Source of the DNA: an uncultured Christensenellaceae bacterium
GTDB lineage: Bacteria > Bacillota > Clostridia > Christensenellales > CAG-314
Length of the DNA stretch: 64,000 nucleotides
Reading direction: 5' to 3'
Assembly: GCA_910585195.1 (NCBI GenBank)
Contig: CAJUCX010000008.1
Coordinates: forward strand, 503-64,502
The position numbers and the translations under genes were made by a program. Of this stretch, positions 22,525 through 56,642 are shown piece by piece. Within the stretch, counting starts at the first letter, position 1, and the number at the start of each line of letters is the position of its first letter. Below the pieces are notes generated by a model, which made no database searches, was not told the DNA's origin, and was given only the letters and a program-made list of their open reading frames with translations.

Positions 22525-22611
22525 GCGGATATGGCGGAATTGGCAGACGCGTAAGATTCAGGTTCTTATGACCGTTAGGTTGTGCAGGTTCAAGTCCTGT
22601 TATCCGCACCA
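22525..22611 (+). tRNA. tRNA-Leu (anticodon CAG); prophage integration target
   Basis: Hand-folded: acceptor gcggata/tatccgc, anticodon stem taaga/tctta with loop ttCAGgt, long variable arm, T-loop ggttcaagtcc, encoded CCA. Confidence 0.88.
22595..22611. repeat. attL core (17-bp direct repeat = 3' end of tRNA-Leu)
   Basis: tcctgttatccgcacca, identical to 56849-56865. Confidence 0.85.
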
Positions 22612-28155: not shown

Positions 28156-30255
28156 TTATGGTGCGTTAATTTTTCCGTCTGAACGTATACTCAAAAAAGT
28201 AGTACCATTATGTTGTATATTGAGCATACTTATTCCATTAGCTGTTTGCGTCTGAAATGACCACCCGTCGCCAATAGCAAATTCAATAACATTTGCAAAA
28301 AGACGCCTGTTGCCATCAGGGTGCGCAGAAATCCCTAAATCAGCAACATTATTTGTCCCATCGGCTTTAACTGCCATTGCTTGCATTATTGCCACATCCC
28401 ATTTGGCAGAATCTCTATAAACACCAAAAAGTCCAATACGACTATTGTTAGCATCTTGCATTTCAACTGTATTGTATATTGTGCTGGTCGGCGTATTTGG
28501 TATTGTAGTCCTAACTATTTGATTATTACCTTGAAAACGTACCGGATAATCCATTAATAATGTGCGATTACGATCAGGCGTGCAAATTCCAAGCCCTGCA
28601 CTGTTTGCATAAATTCTATCGTCATAATCTTTACTATCAGACACATGGAAATCTATTGTTGGGTTATTTCGTGTTCCATTTCCAATTTCAAGTGACACAC
28701 CGTTTTTCCAAGTATTAGTGAATAAAGCATTATTGCAAACCGAAATATTATTATCGAACGTTGTATTTTCTGTAAAAGTTTTTTCACCTGTAATTGTTTG
28801 CGTGCTTATTAAATCAACGACATTCTCTGGAACTAGTGCATCGCCATCTTTTCCTTTATAATTTGTTACGACATTGCTACAAATTATATTTGTTTCATTA
28901 ATCTCGGCAATATGGCGCAAATCGCCGTTTGAAAACATGACACTACTTCCGACCGTTATTGGAATATTTTGTGGCATTAATGATTCTTTATTTATTAGTT
29001 CGCTTGATGTTTCCGACGAATAAAATATGCCAGGACCTTGCATCCCCCGCTCCCCCTGTTCACCTTGTGGTCCTTGCACACCCGTTTCACCCTGAATACC
29101 TTGAACACCTTGCAACCCCTGCGGACCTTGCTCACCCTGTATTCCCTGTATGCCTTGCTCGCCCTGTGGTCCTTGCGGACCTTCAATGCCTTTGAATGTA
29201 GTCCAATAAACCCACTGCGTTGCACCTTTGATATACAGTCTGCCGTCCTCTGCCGTATCGCTTGAATTTATACCGGCTATATCATTTCTAGATAAGTCGG
29301 GATTATTGAAGTCCGCTTCCATTGCCGCAACTGACGAATACCAAACCTTTACGCCGCCGGGGTCGCCTTTTTCGCCCTTTGGTCCCACTTCACCACGCAC
29401 ACCTTGAATACCTTGAGGACCTGTCAAACCTTGTATCCCTTGTACGCCTTGCTCGCCCTGCATTCCTTGCACACCTTGCGCGCCGCGCGGGCCGACCGCA
29501 CCCTGCTGACCTGTTTCGCCGCGTTCGCCTGTTTCACCCTTTTCTCCCTGCTCTCCTTTCAAACCTTGCGGACCTTGAGCCTTAACCATTGTATCAATAA
29601 ACACGCCATCATCTTTACTGAACTCATACCAATTTCCATTCTCGCCTATATATGGCGCAAAATTGCTGTTGTTTCCGCTTCCGTATTGCAGCACCGACCA
29701 AATGTTGGCAGGTTTGTCAAGTTCCTCGGGTGTTGGTCGGTAAGTCGGATTAAAAGACACCGCGCCCGACTTGACGATTGCATTATCTTCCAACTCATTC
29801 AACCTATTGACGAGTGCTTGCACCTCATCAGGCACGGGAACTTGTCCGTTGCTCAGACTGCCGTCAATAAAGAACGTGAAGATTCCACTTGTGAATACTT
29901 GGTAAATCTTTTCGCCGCTTTCAATATTTGAAGTGCCCGTGTCGACCTGCGCGCTGAGTGAAACGCCGCAAATACCTGCCGACTGCAATAACGTTGCCGG
30001 CAAATACGCATTGTACAAATACCCTTTAATATTCTTCTCTTCAAGTGTAGTGCCTGCCAAAATTACAGGCTCGCCCTCAGGCGTAAACTGCGCCGTTGTT
30101 TCGTCCACCCTGCCGAACCTCGCCAACACTACGGTTTTTGCAGGGTCAAAGGTTTTGCTCAAAACATACAGCTTGTTGACAAGTTGCGAGTACTGAGCGT
30201 ATAGTTCAGTTCCGCACAATTGCAGTTGTCCGTTTGTTTTCCATTTTAAGAACAC
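28156..30255 (-). CDS. Collagen-like repeat tail fibre protein
   Basis: 699 aa, GTG start behind AAGGAGGA. Two G-X-Y tracts ([34 protein letters not shown]... and [22 protein letters not shown]...) flank globular domains. Confidence 0.8.
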
Positions 30256-30334
30256 TTTATATCCTCCTTGTTTTTAATTTTTTGTACAAAAAAAGAAAGT
30301 CCGTTGACTTCCTCATTATTTTTTTATACTGCTA

Positions 30335-30363
30335 TTGACTTTTGGGGTAAAATTGCATATAAT
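30335..30363 (+). promoter_or_regulatory. Consensus sigma-70 promoter P1 (TTGACT-17-TATAAT)
   Basis: ttgact tttggggtaaaattgca tataat. Shares the block aattgcatataat with P2. Confidence 0.7.
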
Positions 30364-30369
30364 AATATT

Positions 30370-30458
30370 AAGAAATTCGCTGGGGCTGAGGATGCTGGGC
30401 ATTGGGCCCTGTCATTCCAGTGACCACACTTTTAAGTGCTGGTCGCGAATTTTTTTTT
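30370..30458 (+). ncRNA. Candidate structured small RNA 1 (~89 nt), class unknown
   Basis: Starts ~7 nt after the P1 -10 box. A closing helix aattcgc/gcgaatt encloses two hairpins (30386-30420; 30422-30444) and ends in T9. GC-rich island in an AT-rich spacer. Confidence 0.5.
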
Positions 30459-30485
30459 ACCCTTAAATTATTTTTCGCAAAGGTG

Positions 30486-30513
30486 TTGACATTTTTGTAT
30501 AATTGCATATAAT
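30486..30513 (+). promoter_or_regulatory. Consensus sigma-70 promoter P2 (TTGACA-16-TATAAT)
   Basis: ttgaca tttttgtataattgca tataat. Confidence 0.65.
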
Positions 30514-30519
30514 ATAAAT

Positions 30520-30580
30520 GTAAAGAGTTCACAGCCCCACGCGCTTCGTGCGTTATTTTGGCTGTGGACTTCTTTTTTTT
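30520..30580 (+). ncRNA. Candidate small RNA 2 (~60 nt hairpin) / bidirectional terminator
   Basis: cacagcc...ggctgtg stem, extendable with flanking aaagagtt/gacttcttt, with an inner acgcg-cttc-gtgcgt hairpin. Ends in T8, which abuts the stop of the convergent 207-aa gene. Confidence 0.4.
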
Positions 30581-31202
30581 ATCTAAACGCAATTTCATAA
30601 ACAAACTGTTTATCACCCTTGTCTCTTATGTTAATTGTTATGTCATAAGTCCCTTTATCAGTTTCTACTTTCCCTTTGAAATAATGCCAAAACTTAACAT
30701 CTTTATGTGCTGCCGTTTTTTTACCTGTTTCTTCGCTACTATAATCATATTTTGAATTAGTAATATAACTCGGCAAATCTTTTATATGTTCTTTCTTATA
30801 TAAAAACCCTCTTTGTGTAGAGTTGCCTTTCGCATAAAGATTTTTGTTTGCGGTAAATTTATCAAACTCTGCCAAAATTGATTTATTATCCGTATGTAAT
30901 TCAATTGGCTGAAAGTTTTTAATCATTTCAGCCAATTCTTTCATTTTGATTTTCTTTACATTTTTAAGCGTTTCGACCAATTTTTTCAAAGCCGCTTTTT
31001 TATCTTCGTCAATGCTCGGTAGTTGCTTATGTTCTCCGCTAGATTGCGGTTTTTCCTTGTCTCCCGTCCCTACATCATACCGCCCTGTCTTGCCCGTAAG
31101 TTCGTTGTATTTCTCAACCGCCTCGTCGGCGGTCATGTCTCTTGTATCAACGCCTTTGTCTTTCAGCACGGCGTAGACCATTGGAATAAAGTTTCCTGCC
31201 AT
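30579..31202 (-). CDS. Hypothetical protein with polyvalent-protein-type C-terminal domain (PBECR/LPD-like, tentative)
   Basis: 207 aa. The C-terminus AAHKDVKFWHYFKGKVETDKGTYDITINIRDKGDKQFVYEIAF resembles the H-x-x-YF / x-Y-x-V-x-I / F-Y-D pattern I associate with phage polyvalent-protein nuclease-like domains. The N-terminus shares a ~35-aa module with 44377-44859. Confidence 0.55.
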   Translation of the reverse strand: MAGNFIPMVYAVLKDKGVDTRDMTADEAVEKYNELTGKTGRYDVGTGDKEKPQSSGEHKQLPSIDEDKKAALKKLVETLKNVKKIKMKELAEMIKNFQPIELHTDNKSILAEFDKFTANKNLYAKGNSTQRGFLYKKEHIKDLPSYITNSKYDYSSEETGKKTAAHKDVKFWHYFKGKVETDKGTYDITINIRDKGDKQFVYEIAFR

Positions 31203-31334
31203 TTCCCCTCTCCTTAAATTTTGTTTTTATTTTAGTTATATAAATTTTGGGTATCAAAAAAGGAAAGCAATGTTTTTTGCTTCCCTTCTTGATTTTTTAT
31301 TGTTTTGTGATATACTCTTTGCACGAGGTGTTTT

Positions 31335-31859
31335 ATGCAAAAAATTTTTAATTTTGTTGAGAAAAACAAATTATGGTTTGCTCTTGGTTTTTTCATTTTG
31401 CTGCTTGTTTGTTATTTTGTGCCGACAAACTTGCTTGTTAGAAATGATTTTGTAACAAATACTACAGACGTATATCCTTCAAGTGCTTCAAACTTTTATA
31501 ATGTTTTTAGCAGTGACAATAAAACCATTTACAGTATATTGTTTGCAGTATTACAAATTTTACTGTTTATATTTATTGGTATTTTTTTTGCAAACTATTT
31601 CATAAAATCAAATATATCCTGTAAAATTTCAAATTGCACATTTTCGGCAATATGTATTTTGCAAATACTTGACTTGATATTTTTGATAATAGATATGATA
31701 TATATTCAAAATATTACTACCACCAACTACTATTCATATAATATAGTTCCATACATAGGTTTTTATTTTTATTGTGCATTGACTATCTTTTCAATAATTT
31801 ATTTAGTTACTTTTATAACAAAAAGACTACAATATCACTATCTTGTTGAAAGTAAGTAA
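31335..31859 (+). CDS. Hypothetical multi-pass membrane protein (moron)
   Basis: 174 aa, very AT-rich, opposite strand to the late operon. Own -10-like tatact upstream and a terminator downstream. Confidence 0.55.
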   Translation: MQKIFNFVEKNKLWFALGFFILLLVCYFVPTNLLVRNDFVTNTTDVYPSSASNFYNVFSSDNKTIYSILFAVLQILLFIFIGIFFANYFIKSNISCKISNCTFSAICILQILDLIFLIIDMIYIQNITTTNYYSYNIVPYIGFYFYCALTIFSIIYLVTFITKRLQYHYLVESK

Positions 31860-31937
31860 TAAAAGCAACAGGCAACTGAGAATTAAGACAGACAACTAAA
31901 GACCTACAGTTCAAAATCGACAATAATGATTAATTTT

Positions 31938-31967
31938 AAGACGGCATAATTAAACGCCGTCTTTTTG
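31938..31967. terminator. Bidirectional terminator between the moron and the 849-aa tail gene
   Basis: aagacggc-ataattaaac-gccgtctt followed by ttt. Confidence 0.7.
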
Positions 31968-31969
31968 TT

Positions 31970-34519
31970 TTATATAGGTTTAGTCGCAGTTTGCGCAAAA
32001 TACATTGACAAACTACTTGTGCCTTGATTGACTGTCCTATTTTCGCCTATCAGCAACTCATTGTCCTGCGTTACCAATGCCCACGCTTTGCCTTTCACCG
32101 ACGAATTGAAAAATAAATCATACTTATTGTAAGTTGTTTCGCTTTCGTCAAAAGATAAATCATAACTGCTTGCTTGCATTGCACCCGTCAAATCAATAAT
32201 GCCGTTGCGAAGAACATTTAACTCATTTTGCAAAATATAACATTTGACAGAACTCGGAGCGCTTTCATTTATCAATGCAGCATATTTAATTAACCCCTGC
32301 CCTATAACTAATCCGTCAAGCCCAACGTAATGCAACTGATAATTAAATAATAAATTATTACGCACGTCTTTTTTAACTGTTAAACCAAACGGAATTTTAA
32401 TTATTCCATATTGTTGTAATTTAGTAGCTGTTGTCCATAAACGGTCAATTAACGGAAGATTATTTGCATCCATACCTAAACTTGCTATTTCATTCATGCT
32501 TGCAGATATTTGCACTCGAAGTTCCGAAACTTCACCATTTTGGTCGCAATACGGAATATTTAATGACGCATTTTTTTCATTTGCCCATTGACCCTCAATA
32601 CGTCTACCTGCAGACAAATTGTTTGCAAATCCGAACTCAAACAACAGACTATCCCCTGCCATTTTACAAGAGGTAGCCAATATAAAATTCCCCAATACTA
32701 GAGTATTTTTGCCTCTTGTTGACACAAAACTACTTTGACACAAATTTCCTGCAGTATTCCAATTACTGTGCGCTTGCTTAAACGCATTGCGTAAAAAATA
32801 CGCGCAGTTATTATAGTCTACGCTCGGGTGGCTTGTGATAGAAAATTTGTTCAATCCTGCGCAAAAATACTCGCCGCGATATAACTTTCTGTCAGAAACC
32901 ATACTTGTTGGCAACTCATATTCGCGTCTTTGCTGATTAAGTCCTATGTAGGCAGAAATACGAGAAAAGTCTTTTGTAAATGTGTTTGTCGCCTTGTAGT
33001 AAGTATTTTTGAACTCTAATGCTTGCATTTCCAATATATAAGTTTCCCCGTCGACAATTTGTGCTGTACCGACTTTTGGTATTTCAGTATAACTTTTGTA
33101 ATTTATAGTTTTTTCTATTGCCTTGTTGCCAAAGCGTGCAACTTTACCTTTTAAATTTTCTCCGAAAGATTTTATGTCCACTAAATTTTGACTTTGGTTG
33201 TCAAATGAAACTGCTTTTTGCGGACGACCTTTGCCTGCATACTCCTGTCTAAATCTTGGATTTGAAACCGGTACATACTCTATTTTGAATTTTATGTCTT
33301 GAATTTCTGCTGCATTGCCATAATTTTTATGAACACGATAATTATGATTCCCTGACGAAGGATTTTGTACTAACATTTCTTTTATTAGCAAATTTGCCCA
33401 CGCATACTGAAAGCGGAGTGCTGAAGCAAAGCCATAACCTTTTTGATTAAATCCTTTAATTTTACTATCATAGCGAGTATAATACCAGTGCGCACTTTGG
33501 CTATCGTTTCCGTCACCGTAATTAGGGAAGGATTGATATGCTTCTTTATCTAACACGCGGGTCCCAGGAATATTTAAGGCTGTTTCTTCTGTGTAATATT
33601 TAGCATCCTCAAAAAAACTTCCTGCTATATCATGTCCTACGCTAAATCCCCAAGCCTTAACCTGCTTAACTTCATAAATCGGAAACGGCAAAATCAATTC
33701 CGCAGTATCAAGCGTAAGGTCAACGGTTTCGCTTCTCACCGTTATACCCAAATCAACGCCCGGCATTGTTGGATACCATATTGTCTTTTCCGTATCAAGC
33801 ACGTTTTGCGCCTGTACTTCCAACGCCGTACAATATTCATTCGGATTTTGCCCCTTACGCCAAGTGTAATATCTGTCGTTTTCCAAATACTCTTTAATAT
33901 CACCCAAAAAGTCAAAAGAAAGCGTGTTGTAGTCCGTCATTCGCGGTATAGCGTGAATATACTGCGCACCTTCCATAATTGCCTCGTAAAGCGTATTGTG
34001 GTTTGTCGTAAATTCTCGCGCTTCTATTCCTTTGAGATAGTTTACAAGCGCAGGTTCAATAGTAATCTCCTGCGGCTCAATAATTGATATTCGCAAAGGA
34101 TTAACAGCCAGTAACGTGTCAAAGTAATCATACATAGATTTTTTTATACCAGTTGTCGGCTGCGTAAGCAATTCGCCGCCTGTCGTAATAGTTTCCAAAA
34201 TCTTGGTAGGCTCTACAAACGCAACGTAATGCTTGTAATAATACGGAGGAATCTTCGTAACCAACTCTACCTGACTGCTTGCATACCAATACGTTATCTG
34301 TTCGTCGTTTGCACCCTCTATTATTCTCATTTTTGTAAAAGGCGGTAACGGCTCGCTCTCCGTCGTCTTCATAATTATAAACTCGCCGACGTCCAATGCT
34401 TCGTTGAGTTGCTTTGTCCACCTAAGCGGTATAATTGCTTTCGGTTCTTCCACCCACTCGTTGTTCTTAAAAAATTCTATTCTCAAAGGCAAAATGTCAT
34501 TCACCACGGTTCCTGCCAT
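31970..34519 (-). CDS. Large tail / baseplate structural protein
   Basis: 849 aa, GGAGG RBS. Sits between the head-tail genes and the fibres. No enzymatic motif recognised. Confidence 0.6.
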   Translation of the reverse strand: MAGTVVNDILPLRIEFFKNNEWVEEPKAIIPLRWTKQLNEALDVGEFIIMKTTESEPLPPFTKMRIIEGANDEQITYWYASSQVELVTKIPPYYYKHYVAFVEPTKILETITTGGELLTQPTTGIKKSMYDYFDTLLAVNPLRISIIEPQEITIEPALVNYLKGIEAREFTTNHNTLYEAIMEGAQYIHAIPRMTDYNTLSFDFLGDIKEYLENDRYYTWRKGQNPNEYCTALEVQAQNVLDTEKTIWYPTMPGVDLGITVRSETVDLTLDTAELILPFPIYEVKQVKAWGFSVGHDIAGSFFEDAKYYTEETALNIPGTRVLDKEAYQSFPNYGDGNDSQSAHWYYTRYDSKIKGFNQKGYGFASALRFQYAWANLLIKEMLVQNPSSGNHNYRVHKNYGNAAEIQDIKFKIEYVPVSNPRFRQEYAGKGRPQKAVSFDNQSQNLVDIKSFGENLKGKVARFGNKAIEKTINYKSYTEIPKVGTAQIVDGETYILEMQALEFKNTYYKATNTFTKDFSRISAYIGLNQQRREYELPTSMVSDRKLYRGEYFCAGLNKFSITSHPSVDYNNCAYFLRNAFKQAHSNWNTAGNLCQSSFVSTRGKNTLVLGNFILATSCKMAGDSLLFEFGFANNLSAGRRIEGQWANEKNASLNIPYCDQNGEVSELRVQISASMNEIASLGMDANNLPLIDRLWTTATKLQQYGIIKIPFGLTVKKDVRNNLLFNYQLHYVGLDGLVIGQGLIKYAALINESAPSSVKCYILQNELNVLRNGIIDLTGAMQASSYDLSFDESETTYNKYDLFFNSSVKGKAWALVTQDNELLIGENRTVNQGTSSLSMYFAQTATKPI

Positions 34520-53362: not shown

Positions 53363-53732
53363 TTCATCATATGTAATGTCATATTTTTGGCATAGCTCAA
53401 TCATTGCAAGATATAATTCGTGCATTTTAGATTTCCTCCAAATGAATTTTAGCAATGCGCATTGCCTGATTAAATTATAAAATAGTAATTTTAATAGTTC
53501 AATAGCGAGGATTGTCGATACGGTACTTCTTTTGTCGGCTGTTGTCGAAGTGCTTGACGAATAAAAAAAGTTCAAATTACAAATTGGAAATAAATGGTAA
53601 AAATTGGAAATTTACAGTGAAACCTGAGTACCCAGTTAAACACATTGAAAACGCAGACCTTGAAGAATACAGATTTCTTGGTCTAGTGGCTAAGCTGATA
53701 AGAGATTTGTAAAAAAACTAAGGAATTTGATT

Positions 53733-55364
53733 ATGATAAAAAATTATGACTCACCAATGCCAAACTGCTTAATTCAACTTAGAAAGAAAAATAAAATGCC
53801 TTCCCTCTTTATTGGCGCAGGCATTTGTAGAAGATATATTAAAGATTACCCCAATTGGAATGAGCTACTGTCATCTCTTGCTTCTAGTTGTGGCATCGGT
53901 AAACTTGAACAAGAATTAATACTACAAAAAATTCAGTTTCAAAATCAAGACTGTACTCCTGCGGAGCAAAAACAAAAGTTTGCCTCAATAATTGAGCATC
54001 GTTTTATTGAACTAATAAGTAACACAAAGAATTTTGATAAGTTTTTTAATGAAGAAGAACAACAAGAAATAATAGAAAATCATACATCTCCCTTTAAGTA
54101 TTTTATTGCAAAACAATTTCAAAATATAAAAATTAAAAACGATAAAACCTACTATAAGACAGAGATTGAGCAACTAAAAAAATTAAAATTTAATGCTCGC
54201 ACTGTTATTACCACCAATTATGACAAATTCTTGGAAGACTATATTTTTGAAAATGACTTTGAAGTATTTACTTCCCAAGAATCTATGTACTTGCCTAGTT
54301 GTAATGGCTATGGTGAAATATATAAAATTCATGGCAGTGTTGATGAGCCTAACAATATTATATTAACTGAAGAAGACTATCAAAAATTTGACAAGCAAAA
54401 TAAACTTACTGTAGGAAAAATCTTAACGATATTAACAGAATCACCAATGATATTTTTAGGTTATTCTTTGACTGACGAAAATGTTAAAAACATTTTATTA
54501 TCCTTATTTGAGAGCCTAAATGATAAAACAAGAGAAATCGTAACTAAAAATATTATAATAGTACAACATGTTAATGGATTAAAGGCATTAAACGAATCAA
54601 CAAAATATTTTTATTGCGGAAGTAGTCAAATTGCTATCACTTGTATTGAAACAGATAACTTTACAAAACTCTTTAGATGGCTGTCTTCTTTTCAACCAAC
54701 TGCTCGTCCAAGAGAAATCAGAAAATTTAGACAGATGGTAAAAGAAATTGTTGATAATCAATATGACTCCATCCCTGTGGCATTGCAAATGCTAGCATTA
54801 TTAAAAGACGATGATGCAAAAAACATTATAGCCTTTACGCAAACTGCCATCATTGACAACATACCCAACTCAACACAAAAGCCTATTGCTTATAATTTAG
54901 AACGAGGTTCTCTTCCTTATGAAAAAACCGAGTTATTATTAGAATCACTTTATCAAACAAGTAATTATGACGCTGACCAAATAGTTAATCATTGGTATAT
55001 GTCACCATACCATAGTGAGAAATTTTACACAGGTATTATTTATTTCTATAATAAATTAGATAAGGATAAAATATCAGCTGAAGCAAAAGAAAAAGTAAAA
55101 CATCACTTTAATGCAATAGAAGAAACAAAAAGACGGTTAAGCAAAAAGAAACTACCAATTTTTGATGATAAACAAGATTTACAAACTCAAGTCAATAACA
55201 CTGTCATGAGTAAACAATATGAAGCAATTCAATTGGCATTACTAAATAAAACTATAACCAAAGATAAAGTTAGAACTTTTATTCAAAAACTTTACGAAAA
55301 AGATAATACTATTCTAAATAATACAGGAATTAAAAAAATTATAGAATTCTTAGAACTAGAATAA
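53733..55364 (+). CDS. SIR2-like (SIR2_2 family) protein with unassigned C-terminal half; candidate anti-phage effector
   Basis: PSLFIGAGICRRYIKDYPNWNELL, VITTNYDKFLEDY, IYKIHGSVDEPNNIILTEEDY and IFLGYSLTDENV match the defence-type SIR2 signature (GAG, TTNYD, HGS, GYS). Residues ~300-543 are unrecognised. ATG 53733 lies 8 nt after AAGGA. Confidence 0.7.
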   Translation: MIKNYDSPMPNCLIQLRKKNKMPSLFIGAGICRRYIKDYPNWNELLSSLASSCGIGKLEQELILQKIQFQNQDCTPAEQKQKFASIIEHRFIELISNTKNFDKFFNEEEQQEIIENHTSPFKYFIAKQFQNIKIKNDKTYYKTEIEQLKKLKFNARTVITTNYDKFLEDYIFENDFEVFTSQESMYLPSCNGYGEIYKIHGSVDEPNNIILTEEDYQKFDKQNKLTVGKILTILTESPMIFLGYSLTDENVKNILLSLFESLNDKTREIVTKNIIIVQHVNGLKALNESTKYFYCGSSQIAITCIETDNFTKLFRWLSSFQPTARPREIRKFRQMVKEIVDNQYDSIPVALQMLALLKDDDAKNIIAFTQTAIIDNIPNSTQKPIAYNLERGSLPYEKTELLLESLYQTSNYDADQIVNHWYMSPYHSEKFYTGIIYFYNKLDKDKISAEAKEKVKHHFNAIEETKRRLSKKKLPIFDDKQDLQTQVNNTVMSKQYEAIQLALLNKTITKDKVRTFIQKLYEKDNTILNNTGIKKIIEFLELE

Positions 55365-55559
55365 AATATATGCGAGTTTAATGCACTTCCCCCTTCTTCA
55401 GTTGGGTTACATCAAACTCGCACGCCTGTCAATATAATATCTTTATTGACTATAGAATTGTACTCAATTCTTAGTTAAATTATAACCTTAGTACTAAAAA
55501 TGTCAACTGTTTGTTGAAAATTTAATGCATTTTTAGAATATAAAAATATTTTAGAAATT

Positions 55560-56642
55560 ATGGCAAGTTTTGAAAAAGGAAAAAACGGAAAATGGTCTGT
55601 GCGCTTTCGCACTATCGAAGGCGGCGCCGTCATACAAAAAAGATTAAGCGGCTTTTCGTCAAAGCGAGATGCCGACGCTGCCTATATAAATTATTTGGCA
55701 GAACACCCAAGCGAAGAAAAAAAACTGCCGAATGACTTGACAGTTGACGAACTCTACGTCTTTTATCAAAATTTTATATCAAAGCGAAACAAAGAAACTT
55801 CAGTAACAACAATTTGCAGCACGTTGGAAAAATTCGCCCTACCGTTTTTCAAGGGCAAAAAAGTTCGCAAATTAAAATCCGTTGATATTGTAAACTGGCA
55901 AAACTATTTACTGTCGCAGGGCAAATCCCAACAATACTGCATCAAAATTTTTGCGTACTTTAACACAATGTTAAACTTCGGTGAAAAATACTACGACTTG
56001 CCAAATATCGCTCGACGCGTCGGCAATTTTAAGCGCACGCAAAAACCGCGTCAAATGCAAGTCTGGACTGAATCCGAATTTAAGCAGTTTATTGTTTCTG
56101 TTGAAAACCTGACTTACAAAACGCTTTTTTCTTTTCTCTACTTGACCGGCTGCAGAAAAGGCGAAGCGCTTGCTCTGTCTTGGTCTGATATAAATTTGGA
56201 CAGCGGAATAGTACATATTGAAAAACATTGTGATTTTCATGTTAAAGGCGAACCTTACAAAATTTTTGATACGCCTAAAAACCTATATTCAATACGAGAC
56301 GTCTACTTGCCAAATAACTTGATAGAATTATTAAAACAGCATAAAACAGCACAAAAAGCAAAGGAAAGTGATTTTGTCTTTTGCGGCAAAGCCCCTTTGC
56401 CGGCGGAAACCATAAGGCGCGAATTCCACCGCTATTCAGACCTTGCAGGTGTAAAGCGTATCCGCATCCACGACCTGCGCCACTCGCACGCAAGTTTTTT
56501 AATAAGCAAAGGTCAAGACATTGTAACAGTTGCCCACCGTTTGGGACACAAGGACATTGTTCAAACGCTGAATACTTACTCGCACTTTATGCCGAATAAG
56601 CAGAAAGAAATGCTTGACGTAATGGACTTTGATATTGAATAA
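55560..56642 (+). CDS. int: Tyrosine-type site-specific integrase
   Basis: N-terminal SAM-like domain. Catalytic region TGCRKGEALAL...HDLRHSHASFL...LGHKDIVQTLNTYSH. Confidence 0.92.
   Translation: MASFEKGKNGKWSVRFRTIEGGAVIQKRLSGFSSKRDADAAYINYLAEHPSEEKKLPNDLTVDELYVFYQNFISKRNKETSVTTICSTLEKFALPFFKGKKVRKLKSVDIVNWQNYLLSQGKSQQYCIKIFAYFNTMLNFGEKYYDLPNIARRVGNFKRTQKPRQMQVWTESEFKQFIVSVENLTYKTLFSFLYLTGCRKGEALALSWSDINLDSGIVHIEKHCDFHVKGEPYKIFDTPKNLYSIRDVYLPNNLIELLKQHKTAQKAKESDFVFCGKAPLPAETIRREFHRYSDLAGVKRIRIHDLRHSHASFLISKGQDIVTVAHRLGHKDIVQTLNTYSHFMPNKQKEMLDVMDFDIE

Follow-up and report, generated by a model that had tools for sequence, protein, structure and literature searches.

The 64,000-nt stretch of DNA from an uncultured Christensenellaceae bacterium that we analysed here (the window) contains a prophage, which extends from about 22.6 kb, adjoining a tRNA-Leu gene (22525-22611), to an integrase gene (55560-56642), and which is temperate and siphovirus-like. 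Genes for terminase, portal, a MuF-like minor capsid protein, tail proteins and a collagen fibre are carried on its - strand. The + strand carries a helix-turn-helix (HTH) repressor gene, a SIR2 defence gene, the integrase gene, an open reading frame (ORF) for a 174-aa membrane protein, and two putative small-RNA cassettes, unit 1 and unit 2, which are the subject of this report together with the - strand gene for a 207-aa LPD3-domain protein, on whose stop codon unit 2 ends. These elements occupy a low-GC island (30256-31970; 33% GC, compared with ~43% in the surroundings), which has an 849-aa tail gene on one side and the fibre gene on the other. The gap from the fibre start (30255) to the stop of the 207-aa gene (30579) measures 323 bp; no credible ORF was found when this gap was checked for ORFs, and the neighbouring late genes are all on the - strand, as the original prediction for this DNA had claimed. 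That prediction had also placed the cassettes antisense to the late strand of the prophage, and this agrees with our map, on which the other + strand genes are of the lysogeny type (repressor, SIR2, integrase, membrane moron). The elements of immediate concern are listed here (MFE, minimum free energy):

30335..30363, + strand: unit 1 promoter, TTGACT-17-TATAAT, 11/12 in a consensus scan
30370..30458, + strand: unit 1 RNA, ~89 nt, three-way junction; MFE -37.5 kcal/mol, z -4.44 (30370-30459)
30486..30513, + strand: unit 2 promoter, TTGACA-16-TATAAT, 12/12 in a consensus scan
30520..30580, + strand: unit 2 RNA, ~60 nt, long interrupted hairpin; MFE -25.9 kcal/mol, z -6.24
30579..31202, - strand: 207-aa solo LPD3-domain gene, constant partner of unit 2

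Both promoters have the positions, spacing and strand that had been predicted for them, and the folds and U-runs behind them lie where they had been placed (z of -4.4 for unit 1 and -6.2 for unit 2). An identical 13-nt block, AATTGCATATAAT, is present in the two promoters, at 30351-30363 and 30501-30513. The cassettes had been described as a paralogous tandem pair; this holds for the promoters, which are duplicates of each other, but not for the RNAs, which are unrelated in sequence and in fold. Sites that match the promoter consensus at 11/12 or better number 18 in the whole 64-kb window, both strands counted. Among these sites, a very stable fold and a T-run follow those of units 1 and 2, one site internal to a coding sequence (57991) and one behind the SIR2 gene. 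Comparable cassettes are almost absent elsewhere (166 kb scanned, both strands).

The fold of unit 2 is weaker when computed for the reverse strand (-21.2 kcal/mol). In the window, the outer stem is formed by GAGUUCACAGCC and GGCUGUGGACUUC, the inner hairpin is ACGCGC-UUC-GUGCGU, which includes the loop sequence CUUCGUG, and an internal loop is present on the 3' side. The U8 tail (30573-30580) overlaps the TAA stop codon (30579-30581) of the - strand 207-aa gene. A covariance model built from eight unit-2 sequences, R1, scores the window copy at 53.9 bits (30523-30580). We fitted 12 distinct sequences to this model and observed that 97.2% of the cells of the alignment pair and that two-sided changes occur at 14 of the 15 pairs; none of 500 shuffles reached the same values, slid controls paired at 25-61%, and an independent alignment and fold with MAFFT and RNAalifold gave the same result. 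The outer stem, of 11 bp, is essentially without conserved sequence. The inner hairpin, of 4-6 bp, keeps the loop C-U-(U/A)-(C/A)-G-U-G (C-U-W-M-G-U-G), and a 3' bulge of approximately UAGUG is semi-conserved. G-U combinations fill 12 cells of the alignment and A-C combinations at most 3, and from this excess it follows that the selected fold is on the small-RNA strand.

In each of the 11 listed relatives whose contig includes the upstream flank, the RNA is preceded, at a distance of 5-20 nt, by a promoter that matches the consensus at 9-12 of 12 positions; eight of these promoters reach 10-12, and those of L036 and L038 reach 9. L037 is truncated by the end of its contig. The view that such elements are stand-alone structured small-RNA genes is thus supported by the relatives, in which promoter, fold and terminator are kept with compensatory base changes, and the region is not an unconserved spacer. 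The loops CUUCGUG, CUUAGUG and CUAAGUG each hold a YUNR tetramer (U-turn motif), from which a variant in locus L146 departs. The unit-2 RNA of L146 is without the CUUCGUG loop and scores 28.6 bits with R1; the LPD3-like gene of this locus is split into ORFs of 145 aa and 74 aa, by a frameshift or by an assembly error. In all members, an A-rich 5' strand is paired with the first part of the U-run at the 3' end. The U-tract is 7-9 nt long on the small-RNA strand as compared with ~4-5 nt on the mRNA strand.

Such a terminator-like build raises the question of whether the RNAs have a function at all. The hairpins could be bidirectional insulating terminators, and the promoters could act by interference, or as a roadblock, against late-strand read-through in the lysogen, the RNAs being by-products. 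Each RNA is indeed enclosed by an A-tract, a stem and a U-tract, in the classical layout of a two-way terminator; an additional - strand terminator precedes the fibre gene, and the same layout is found behind the SIR2 gene. A plain terminator, however, needs neither a conserved inner hairpin, loop motif and bulge nor the conserved junction core that we describe below for unit 1, and the G-U excess points to selection on the small-RNA strand. Interference of the collision type would, moreover, be minimal, because the transcript terminates ~60 nt after its start and the polymerases do not enter the gene. We regard this explanation as improbable.

The original prediction assigned neither RNA to a known class, and our searches bear this out. 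A scan of the whole window at the gathering thresholds of Rfam 15 returned 4 tRNAs only; the best overlapping match in a permissive scan of 29800-31300 was SpF11, at 18.8 bits as against the 54 needed (E 9.4); and Rfam searches with relatives L032, L033, L036 and L039 found no family. ARAGORN located four tRNAs elsewhere in the window and no tRNA or transfer-messenger RNA (tmRNA) in 30256-30580, so that the comparison with tRNAs gave no tRNA or tmRNA match for either RNA. Mimicry of an anticodon loop or T-loop by the CUUCGUG hairpin was also considered from the sequence, but the idea was dropped, as neither positions 37/58 nor the loop variants agree with it. That most of the stem sequence varies between members of the unit-2 family was counted against a mimic of CRISPR (clustered regularly interspaced short palindromic repeats) repeats or an RNA anti-CRISPR. 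No nucleotide similarity to GenBank phages was found, and the exact RNA cores were not found in IMG/VR.

The occurrence of unit 2 is tied to the LPD3-like gene. At 14 of 16 LPD3-like gene lineages, we observed a unit-2 RNA that is antisense to the gene and ends on its stop codon. The lineages have protein identities of 42-76% and belong to different phage backbones. In the other 2 lineages, locus L039, which has a fragment of the gene, carries a unit-1 RNA at that place, and L033 carries a different RNA of 132 nt together with a unit-1 copy. Distant homologues (41-76% identity) could be placed on contigs for relatives of proteins P0001, P0002, P0005, P0006, P0007, P0008, P0010 and P0011, and each of these groups has an opposite-strand near-consensus promoter, a 55-80-nt hairpin RNA and a U-run that ends on the stop codon. 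The linkage is kept both between tail and fibre genes (the window and L011) and after the capsid gene (L016, L022, L025 and L028, phages that carry a phi29-gp9-like tail protein). The link is therefore to the LPD3-like gene, also where this gene sits in the head module, and not to the late operon in general, as had originally been supposed. The architecture had likewise been called non-standard for a phage; the cassettes are as described, but the layout recurs in this phage group and is therefore not a one-off oddity.

R1 gives one strong hit per locus, always at the LPD3-like stop, with the exception of L032, which has a second copy. The linkage was tested independently on six loci that had been retrieved only for their protein similarity, and an R1 hit at the stop codon, with a promoter upstream, was found in five of the six (32.6-62.5 bits). 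Exact lookup of protein homologues added two R1 hits, in L145 and L146; neither these loci nor the five just mentioned had been used in building R1. Modular transfer is evident from closely related sequences. In ten metagenomic loci with an identical protein, the gap is 100% identical and the flanking tail, membrane and fibre genes differ; a blastn comparison showed the block 29033-31348 to be common to an otherwise diverged phage, and the 5' half of the fibre gene moves with the small-RNA/LPD3 module in mosaic exchange. Recombination seems to move the 3' end of the LPD3-like gene along with its RNA. All copies of the module come from uncultured Firmicutes-type phages; SRR22050017/22 and ERR3473658 are examples of samples in which it is present. 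A tblastn search of GenBank phages with the 207-aa protein and P0007 found none, that is, no cultured phage carries the module, and the 207-aa and 849-aa proteins, used as single queries against IMG/VR and GTDB genomes, gave no confirmed loci.

Three of the loci have additional features at this site. In L032 (1882-2130), what remains of an LPD3-like gene, ~100 nt from its 3' end, lies between two unit-2 RNAs. In L039 (2950-3199), the last 21 codons of the gene remain beside the unit-1 RNA. In L033 (1472-1650, - strand), a third RNA type, of ~132 nt, stands in the place of unit 2 beside a gene for a 243-aa LPD3-like protein, the ORF of which is extended by 35 codons into the region of the third RNA. 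This RNA has a closing helix formed by AACUUUCUA and UAGAAAGUU, a separate terminator hairpin, a promoter of the form TTGACA-17-CATAAT, and no Rfam match.

In the 207-aa protein, an N-terminal adaptor (~45 aa) is joined through a disordered linker to an LPD3-like alpha+beta domain at the C-terminus. Its match to the Pfam LPD3 profile (PF18798) covers positions 8-114 of 114 at 20.5 bits (E 5.5e-4), below the 27-bit cut-off; several homologues have a precomputed PF18798 hit. Among the homologues, the C-terminal domain of ~125 aa is conserved and the N-terminal part is variable. The adaptor is common to only some of the LPD3-like homologues, and is found also on other C-termini, including those of predicted PBECR RNases. 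A profile of ten homologues retrieved 520 protein clusters at E <=0.001, most of which are internal regions of proteins of 1,000-5,000 aa (E 1e-14 to 1e-33), and ~16 of which form a close solo clade. An AlphaFold2 model of the protein has a mean confidence (predicted local distance difference test, pLDDT) of 72.6 overall and of 80-91 in the C-terminal domain. Its best matches in BFVD are annotated as LPD3 or polyvalent proteins (E 2e-4 to 5e-3, probability 0.99-1.0), and its matches in the PDB are weak and NTF2-like; no nuclease or RNA-binding fold was found for the protein by fold and profile comparison. Proteins of the LPD3-like family are soluble, measure 180-243 aa, and are mostly basic, with an isoelectric point (pI) of ~9 and a range down to 6.4. 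Solo LPD3 copies near virion genes have been noted before, and were proposed to aid early invasion (PMC5512222, Iyer et al. 2017); that report describes no RNA partner and assigns no function to LPD3.

Proteins that share only the adaptor (P0012 and P0022) have no small RNA, and an overlapping gene for a 70-aa CPCC protein follows them instead. Such an arrangement is seen in L040 (3001-3671) and L042 (3001-3710), where the adaptor, NFIPMVYAVLKD..., is joined to other C-termini and the overlapping 70-aa gene encodes a Cys-rich CPCC protein. The layout resembles an effector-immunity pair, and lies in chromosomes of sporulating Firmicutes beside a fragment of a small-terminase gene.

These observations bear on the possibility that the small RNA binds the LPD3-like protein, by way of its inner hairpin and bulge. 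The linkage would then reflect co-function, and the RNA might be an inhibitor or antitoxin (with a logic like that of type III systems), a chaperoned cargo that is packaged and ejected, or a cofactor. Conservation of the C-U-W-M-G-U-G loop and 3' bulge beside a fully randomised outer stem is what such binding might leave behind, and the presence of the RNA goes with the LPD3-like C-terminal domain, not with the adaptor or with a position in the genome. Most of the family proteins are basic, with a pI of ~9, and the small overlapping protein gene that adaptor-sharing effectors have at this place fits a slot for an immunity function or inhibitor. Against this, the predicted fold, with its likeness to LPD3 and weak likeness to NTF2, has no signature of RNA binding or nuclease activity; most LPD3 domains are parts of giant polyvalent proteins for which no dedicated RNA is apparent; the pI in the family reaches down to 6.4; and different RNA types replace unit 2 in L033 and L039. 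On balance we consider such a partnership unlikely. A combined version, in which the solo LPD3 protein and its tail-to-tail RNA (unit 2, unit 1 and the third type of L033 being interchangeable) form a dedicated RNA-protein system, appears to us rather doubtful; here the RNA would be either an inhibitor or antitoxin of a virion-delivered LPD3 effector or a counter-defence cargo carried by the protein, and our doubt covers the two options jointly. If this version were true, it would provide the first functional handle on LPD3, which is found in hundreds of giant polyvalent proteins, and would define a new class of conflict module, of protein and small RNA, in gut Firmicutes phages.

Unit 1 is of a different build. 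None of 200 shuffles was as stable as its fold, and the reverse strand folds more weakly (-28.5 kcal/mol). Helix P1 pairs 30370-30380 with 30445-30455 and includes the closing helix AAGAAAUUCGC / GCGAAUUUUUU; a conserved unpaired UGGG (30381-30384) follows, then the bulged hairpin P2 (30385-30421) and the hairpin P3 (30422-30444), and the terminator tail is U9 (30450-30458). Three diverged relatives were found, in L033, L039 and the IMG/VR contig L066, with promoters equivalent to that in the window, and the same three-way junction folds independently in each of the 4 homologues. The conserved residues gather at the junction (GAAAU..GC-UGGG-GCU / CAGURAC / GUYGC..AUUUUUU), and the helices vary. 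A second covariance model, R2, which was built from three sequences, scores the window copy at 106.5 bits and the held-out L033 copy at 31 bits. Alignment of the four sequences gave 99% of cells paired, with double changes at 8 of 25 pairs, and covariation in this small set is suggestive. Pattern scans for unit 1 gave 21 genome hits, 20 of which were chance matches rejected by R2; in a relaxed scan of IMG/VR with 79 hits, all 78 newly fetched loci were rejected by R2 as chance matches, and the 79th, the already known L066, was the sole real copy. In L066, the RNA abuts an ORF whose last ~50 codons, the available part, are unlike the LPD3-like C-terminus, and a ParB-methylase gene lies beside it. 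L011, the closest relative of the module, lacks exactly the unit 1 RNA, and its sole promoter aligns by blastn with both promoters of the window; it follows that unit 1 was gained or lost through recombination between the duplicated promoters.

One further observation concerns the two units together. The conserved unit 1 junction sequence UGGGGCUG (30381-30388) is perfectly complementary to CAGCCCCA (30533-30540) in the 5' arm of unit 2. Pairing of the two units through this 8-nt match is unproven: it is seen in the window type only, is not kept in other unit-2 members or in L033, and ~0.07 such matches are expected by chance.

The mobility of unit 1 invites the view that both units are autonomous morons, expressed in the lysogen, which act in trans on targets of the host or of rival phages, whether by regulating mRNAs, as sponges, or as decoys for defences that are guided by RNA or sense it; they would then collect beside the LPD3-like gene only because its conserved 3' end, with the adjoining accessory island, is a recombination slot. 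Unit 1 is present or absent between close relatives, is flanked by a duplicated promoter, abuts once (L066) an ORF with a visible C-terminus that is not LPD3-like, and conserves its junction core and not its stems. The remnants of gene 3' ends beside small RNAs in L032 and L039 would be marks of recombination, and the island has a membrane moron and the prophage a SIR2 defence gene. Unit 2, however, was never apart from an LPD3-like gene in the loci examined, and the register of its U-run on the stop codon is exact across protein identities of 42-76%. Nor was there a recurrent second site complementary to the loop in any phage locus searched, or any similarity to tRNA or Rfam families. We think such a role for the two units unlikely as well.

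Further features of the locus define the transcripts with which units 1 and 2 might interact:

28156..30255, - strand: collagen-repeat tail fibre gene (context)
30293..30314, - strand: terminator-like hairpin and T-run, upstream of the fibre Shine-Dalgarno sequence and downstream of the unit 1 promoter on the late strand
31229..31257, - strand: promoter-like site TTGATA-17-TAAAAT upstream of the 207-aa gene, 10/12, a consensus match only
31335..31859, + strand: 174-aa multi-pass membrane ORF in the same low-GC island, with its own promoter-like site and terminator

The promoter-like site at 31229-31257 suggests that the 207-aa gene could be transcribed on its own. The hairpin at 30293-30314, which is kept in L011 and L145, probably marks the 3' limit of a transcript of this gene that would cross the antisense of units 2 and 1, and its position suggests that fibre expression would need read-through or antitermination. 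The region 30253-30322 (- strand) also gave a sub-threshold Rfam match to caiA RNA, at 26.8 bits as against the 55.5 needed. As for the 174-aa membrane ORF, its promoter-like site lies at 31289-31316 and its hairpin terminator near 31940-31965, no family match was found for it, and its slot holds a 190-aa or 144-aa ORF in relatives; the ORF is a candidate moron for superinfection exclusion or conversion.

The window contains a third cassette built in the same way, at 55365-55506 (- strand), where a TTGACA-16-TATAAT promoter (12/12) is followed by a structured RNA of ~105 nt at 55365-55473 (-39.9 kcal/mol and z -4.6 for a 149-nt fold). This RNA lies in the gap that precedes the integrase gene, and its terminator hairpin ends at the stop codon (55364) of a convergent gene with a SIR2 domain. 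This gene (53727-55364) is PADLOC candidate PDC-S25 (E 2.6e-91). No relatives of it were found in IMG/VR, in a search that tested whether the third cassette is general. In L022 (1295-1470, + strand), a strong TTGACA-18-TATTAT promoter is followed by a very stable 141-nt fold (-52.7 kcal/mol) and a T-run, which aim at the 3' end of an integrase gene; the small integrase-bearing element also carries HicAB.

A convergent RNA in a prophage recalls toxin-antitoxin systems, and the original prediction had named an RNA antitoxin among its suggestions. In the classical type I form, a small hydrophobic toxin peptide would be encoded opposite the small RNAs. The locus is prophage-borne and convergent, with a putative shared terminator and a short RNA predicted to be strongly expressed, as in par (PMC7472228), txpA/RatA and bsrG/SR4. 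Yet the ORFs opposite the RNAs are out-of-frame read-throughs only, without membrane character, the partner is a soluble protein of 180-243 aa, and the RNA has no complementarity to the translation-initiation region. Because a small hydrophobic ORF and pairing with the translation start are both lacking, and these are two defining tests, the locus is not a type I system of this kind; we give the idea hardly any weight. A type III system of the ToxIN type was also considered and rejected: the RNAs are single-copy and convergent, have their own promoter and form no tandem repeats, and the protein fold is without nuclease similarity.

Our preferred reading, to which we would tentatively give a probability of about 0.42, is that unit 2 acts in cis as an antisense RNA, which would have a two-way terminator in common with the LPD3-like mRNA and would limit the expression of this mRNA. 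We favour it because the layout matches that of RNA II and RNA I of par(pAD1) and recalls the OOP RNA of phage lambda. Our analysis demonstrates the sequence features, their conservation and covariation, the strand of the structure, the linkage to the gene and the modular transfer; transcription, RNA-RNA pairing, the involvement of RNase III and the regulatory outcome are what we infer in the following scheme. A strong sigma-A promoter would fire toward the 3' end of the LPD3-like gene and produce the ~60-nt unit 2 RNA, which would be essentially the shared A-tract/hairpin/U-tract terminator with an internal loop and a small YUNR apical hairpin. The exact complement would be carried at the 3' end of the LPD3-like mRNA, or of a late polycistronic RNA where the gene is in an operon. 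The presumably abundant small RNA would meet this mRNA by loop-loop kissing, the contact would grow into a duplex of ~55 bp, and the duplex would be cut by RNase III, or the message otherwise deprived of a protective 3' hairpin. Expression of the LPD3-like protein, and read-through to the fibre gene, would be held down, chiefly in lysogens with only the constitutive small RNA. Unit 1 would be a member of a second, mobile small-RNA family, inserted with a duplicated copy of the promoter, and in the window would lengthen the part of this 3' untranslated stretch that is covered in antisense; from the conservation of its junction, unit 1 may also bind something in trans. The interrupted stem with a small apical YUNR loop, as in textbook antisense RNAs, supports the cis-antisense reading, and so, by our count, does the third cassette of the same build, which faces the SIR2 stop codon in the same prophage.

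Several observations weigh against this reading. Transcription of units 1 and 2 is predicted from sequence only, and unit 2 overlaps the stop codon and none of the coding sequence. We detected no complementarity beyond background between the small RNA and the LPD3-like translation start: at 7 loci, duplex energies with the -40 to +20 region were no better than those with random segments of the same locus, and a direct block of translation is therefore impossible. The loop and the 3' bulge (~UAGUG) are kept while the outer stem is randomised, and such conservation should matter less to a pure cis-antisense RNA than to one that binds a protein or acts in trans. Other RNA types stand at the same position in L039 (unit-1 type) and in L033 (third type, with a unit-1 copy upstream), and this interchange might point to a hot spot of recombination and not to a regulatory pair. 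The unit-1 copy of L066 abuts an ORF whose visible end is unlike the LPD3-like C-terminus. There is no sign that the LPD3-like protein is harmful or that its dose is critical, and termination on the sense strand is merely plausible, because the U-tract is short there. A role with the protein or in trans is kept open by the conserved loop and bulge, the interchangeable RNA types and the unit 1 junction.

Whichever role applies, the analysis defines two structured RNA families of uncultured Firmicutes phages that are absent from Rfam, with covariation support and working covariance models. Standard annotation, which is of proteins only, misses such small-RNA cassettes entirely. The giant polyvalent proteins in which LPD3 recurs are believed to be injected by phages and conjugative elements. 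A dedicated RNA at the 3' end of an LPD3-like gene, strongly promoted as predicted here, would imply either that the dose of the protein matters or that the RNA works together with it, and the RNA link makes LPD3 experimentally approachable. The SIR2 cassette hints that RNAs which abut the terminators of convergent genes may be a general means by which prophages control accessory or toxic genes.

Antisense decay in the RatA/txpA and SR4/bsrG pairs of Bacillus prophages depends on RNase III. Like unit 2, RatA and SR4 are prophage-borne and 3'-overlapping; unlike it, they are RNAs of 180-220 nt that overlap by ~75-120 nt and have small toxic peptides as targets. Their pairing with the 3' end of the target mRNA promotes its decay (PMC3834814). 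The lambda OOP RNA is a short terminated RNA convergent on cII, and repression by it depends on cleavage of the duplex by RNase III (PMC5869508). It resembles unit 2 in being a phage-encoded, constitutively promoted (a prediction in our case), short terminated RNA antisense to the 3' end of one gene. OOP, however, covers 52 nt of the cII coding sequence, whereas unit 2 covers the stop codon and the 3' untranslated hairpin only; OOP belongs to the early/immunity region of a proteobacterial phage and unit 2 to late or accessory regions of Firmicutes phages, and the two are unrelated in sequence and fold.

The closest likeness in layout is to par(pAD1) of the Fst family, in which convergent RNAs share a bidirectional terminator whose complementary loops are proposed to start the pairing (PMC7472228). 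As in RNA II and RNA I, the promoters are convergent, those at our locus being a 12/12 site against a 10/12 site or the late operon, on consensus matches only. The short RNA (~40-65 nt) is largely a factor-independent terminator, which is common to both transcripts in par and would be so at our locus, and both systems reside on mobile elements of Firmicutes (PMC7472228). Each has a YUNR U-turn recognition loop, but this lies in the small RNA here and in the mRNA in par. In par, the partner is a membrane peptide of 33 aa, and direct repeats give a second pairing site at the translation start; at our locus, such repeats are absent, and the partner is a soluble protein with an LPD3 domain (180-243 aa) that is not known to be toxic. 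The C-terminal 125 residues of the 207-aa protein match, by profile and by fold, the LPD3 (PF18798) regions of giant proteins of phages and conjugative elements; they differ from LPD3 as published in having a putative RNA partner and in a Pfam score below the curated cut-off. As a kind of element, small antisense RNAs that mobile elements encode in cis are already known; new here are the partner gene, a minimal design that consists of a terminator alone, and RNA types that can replace one another.

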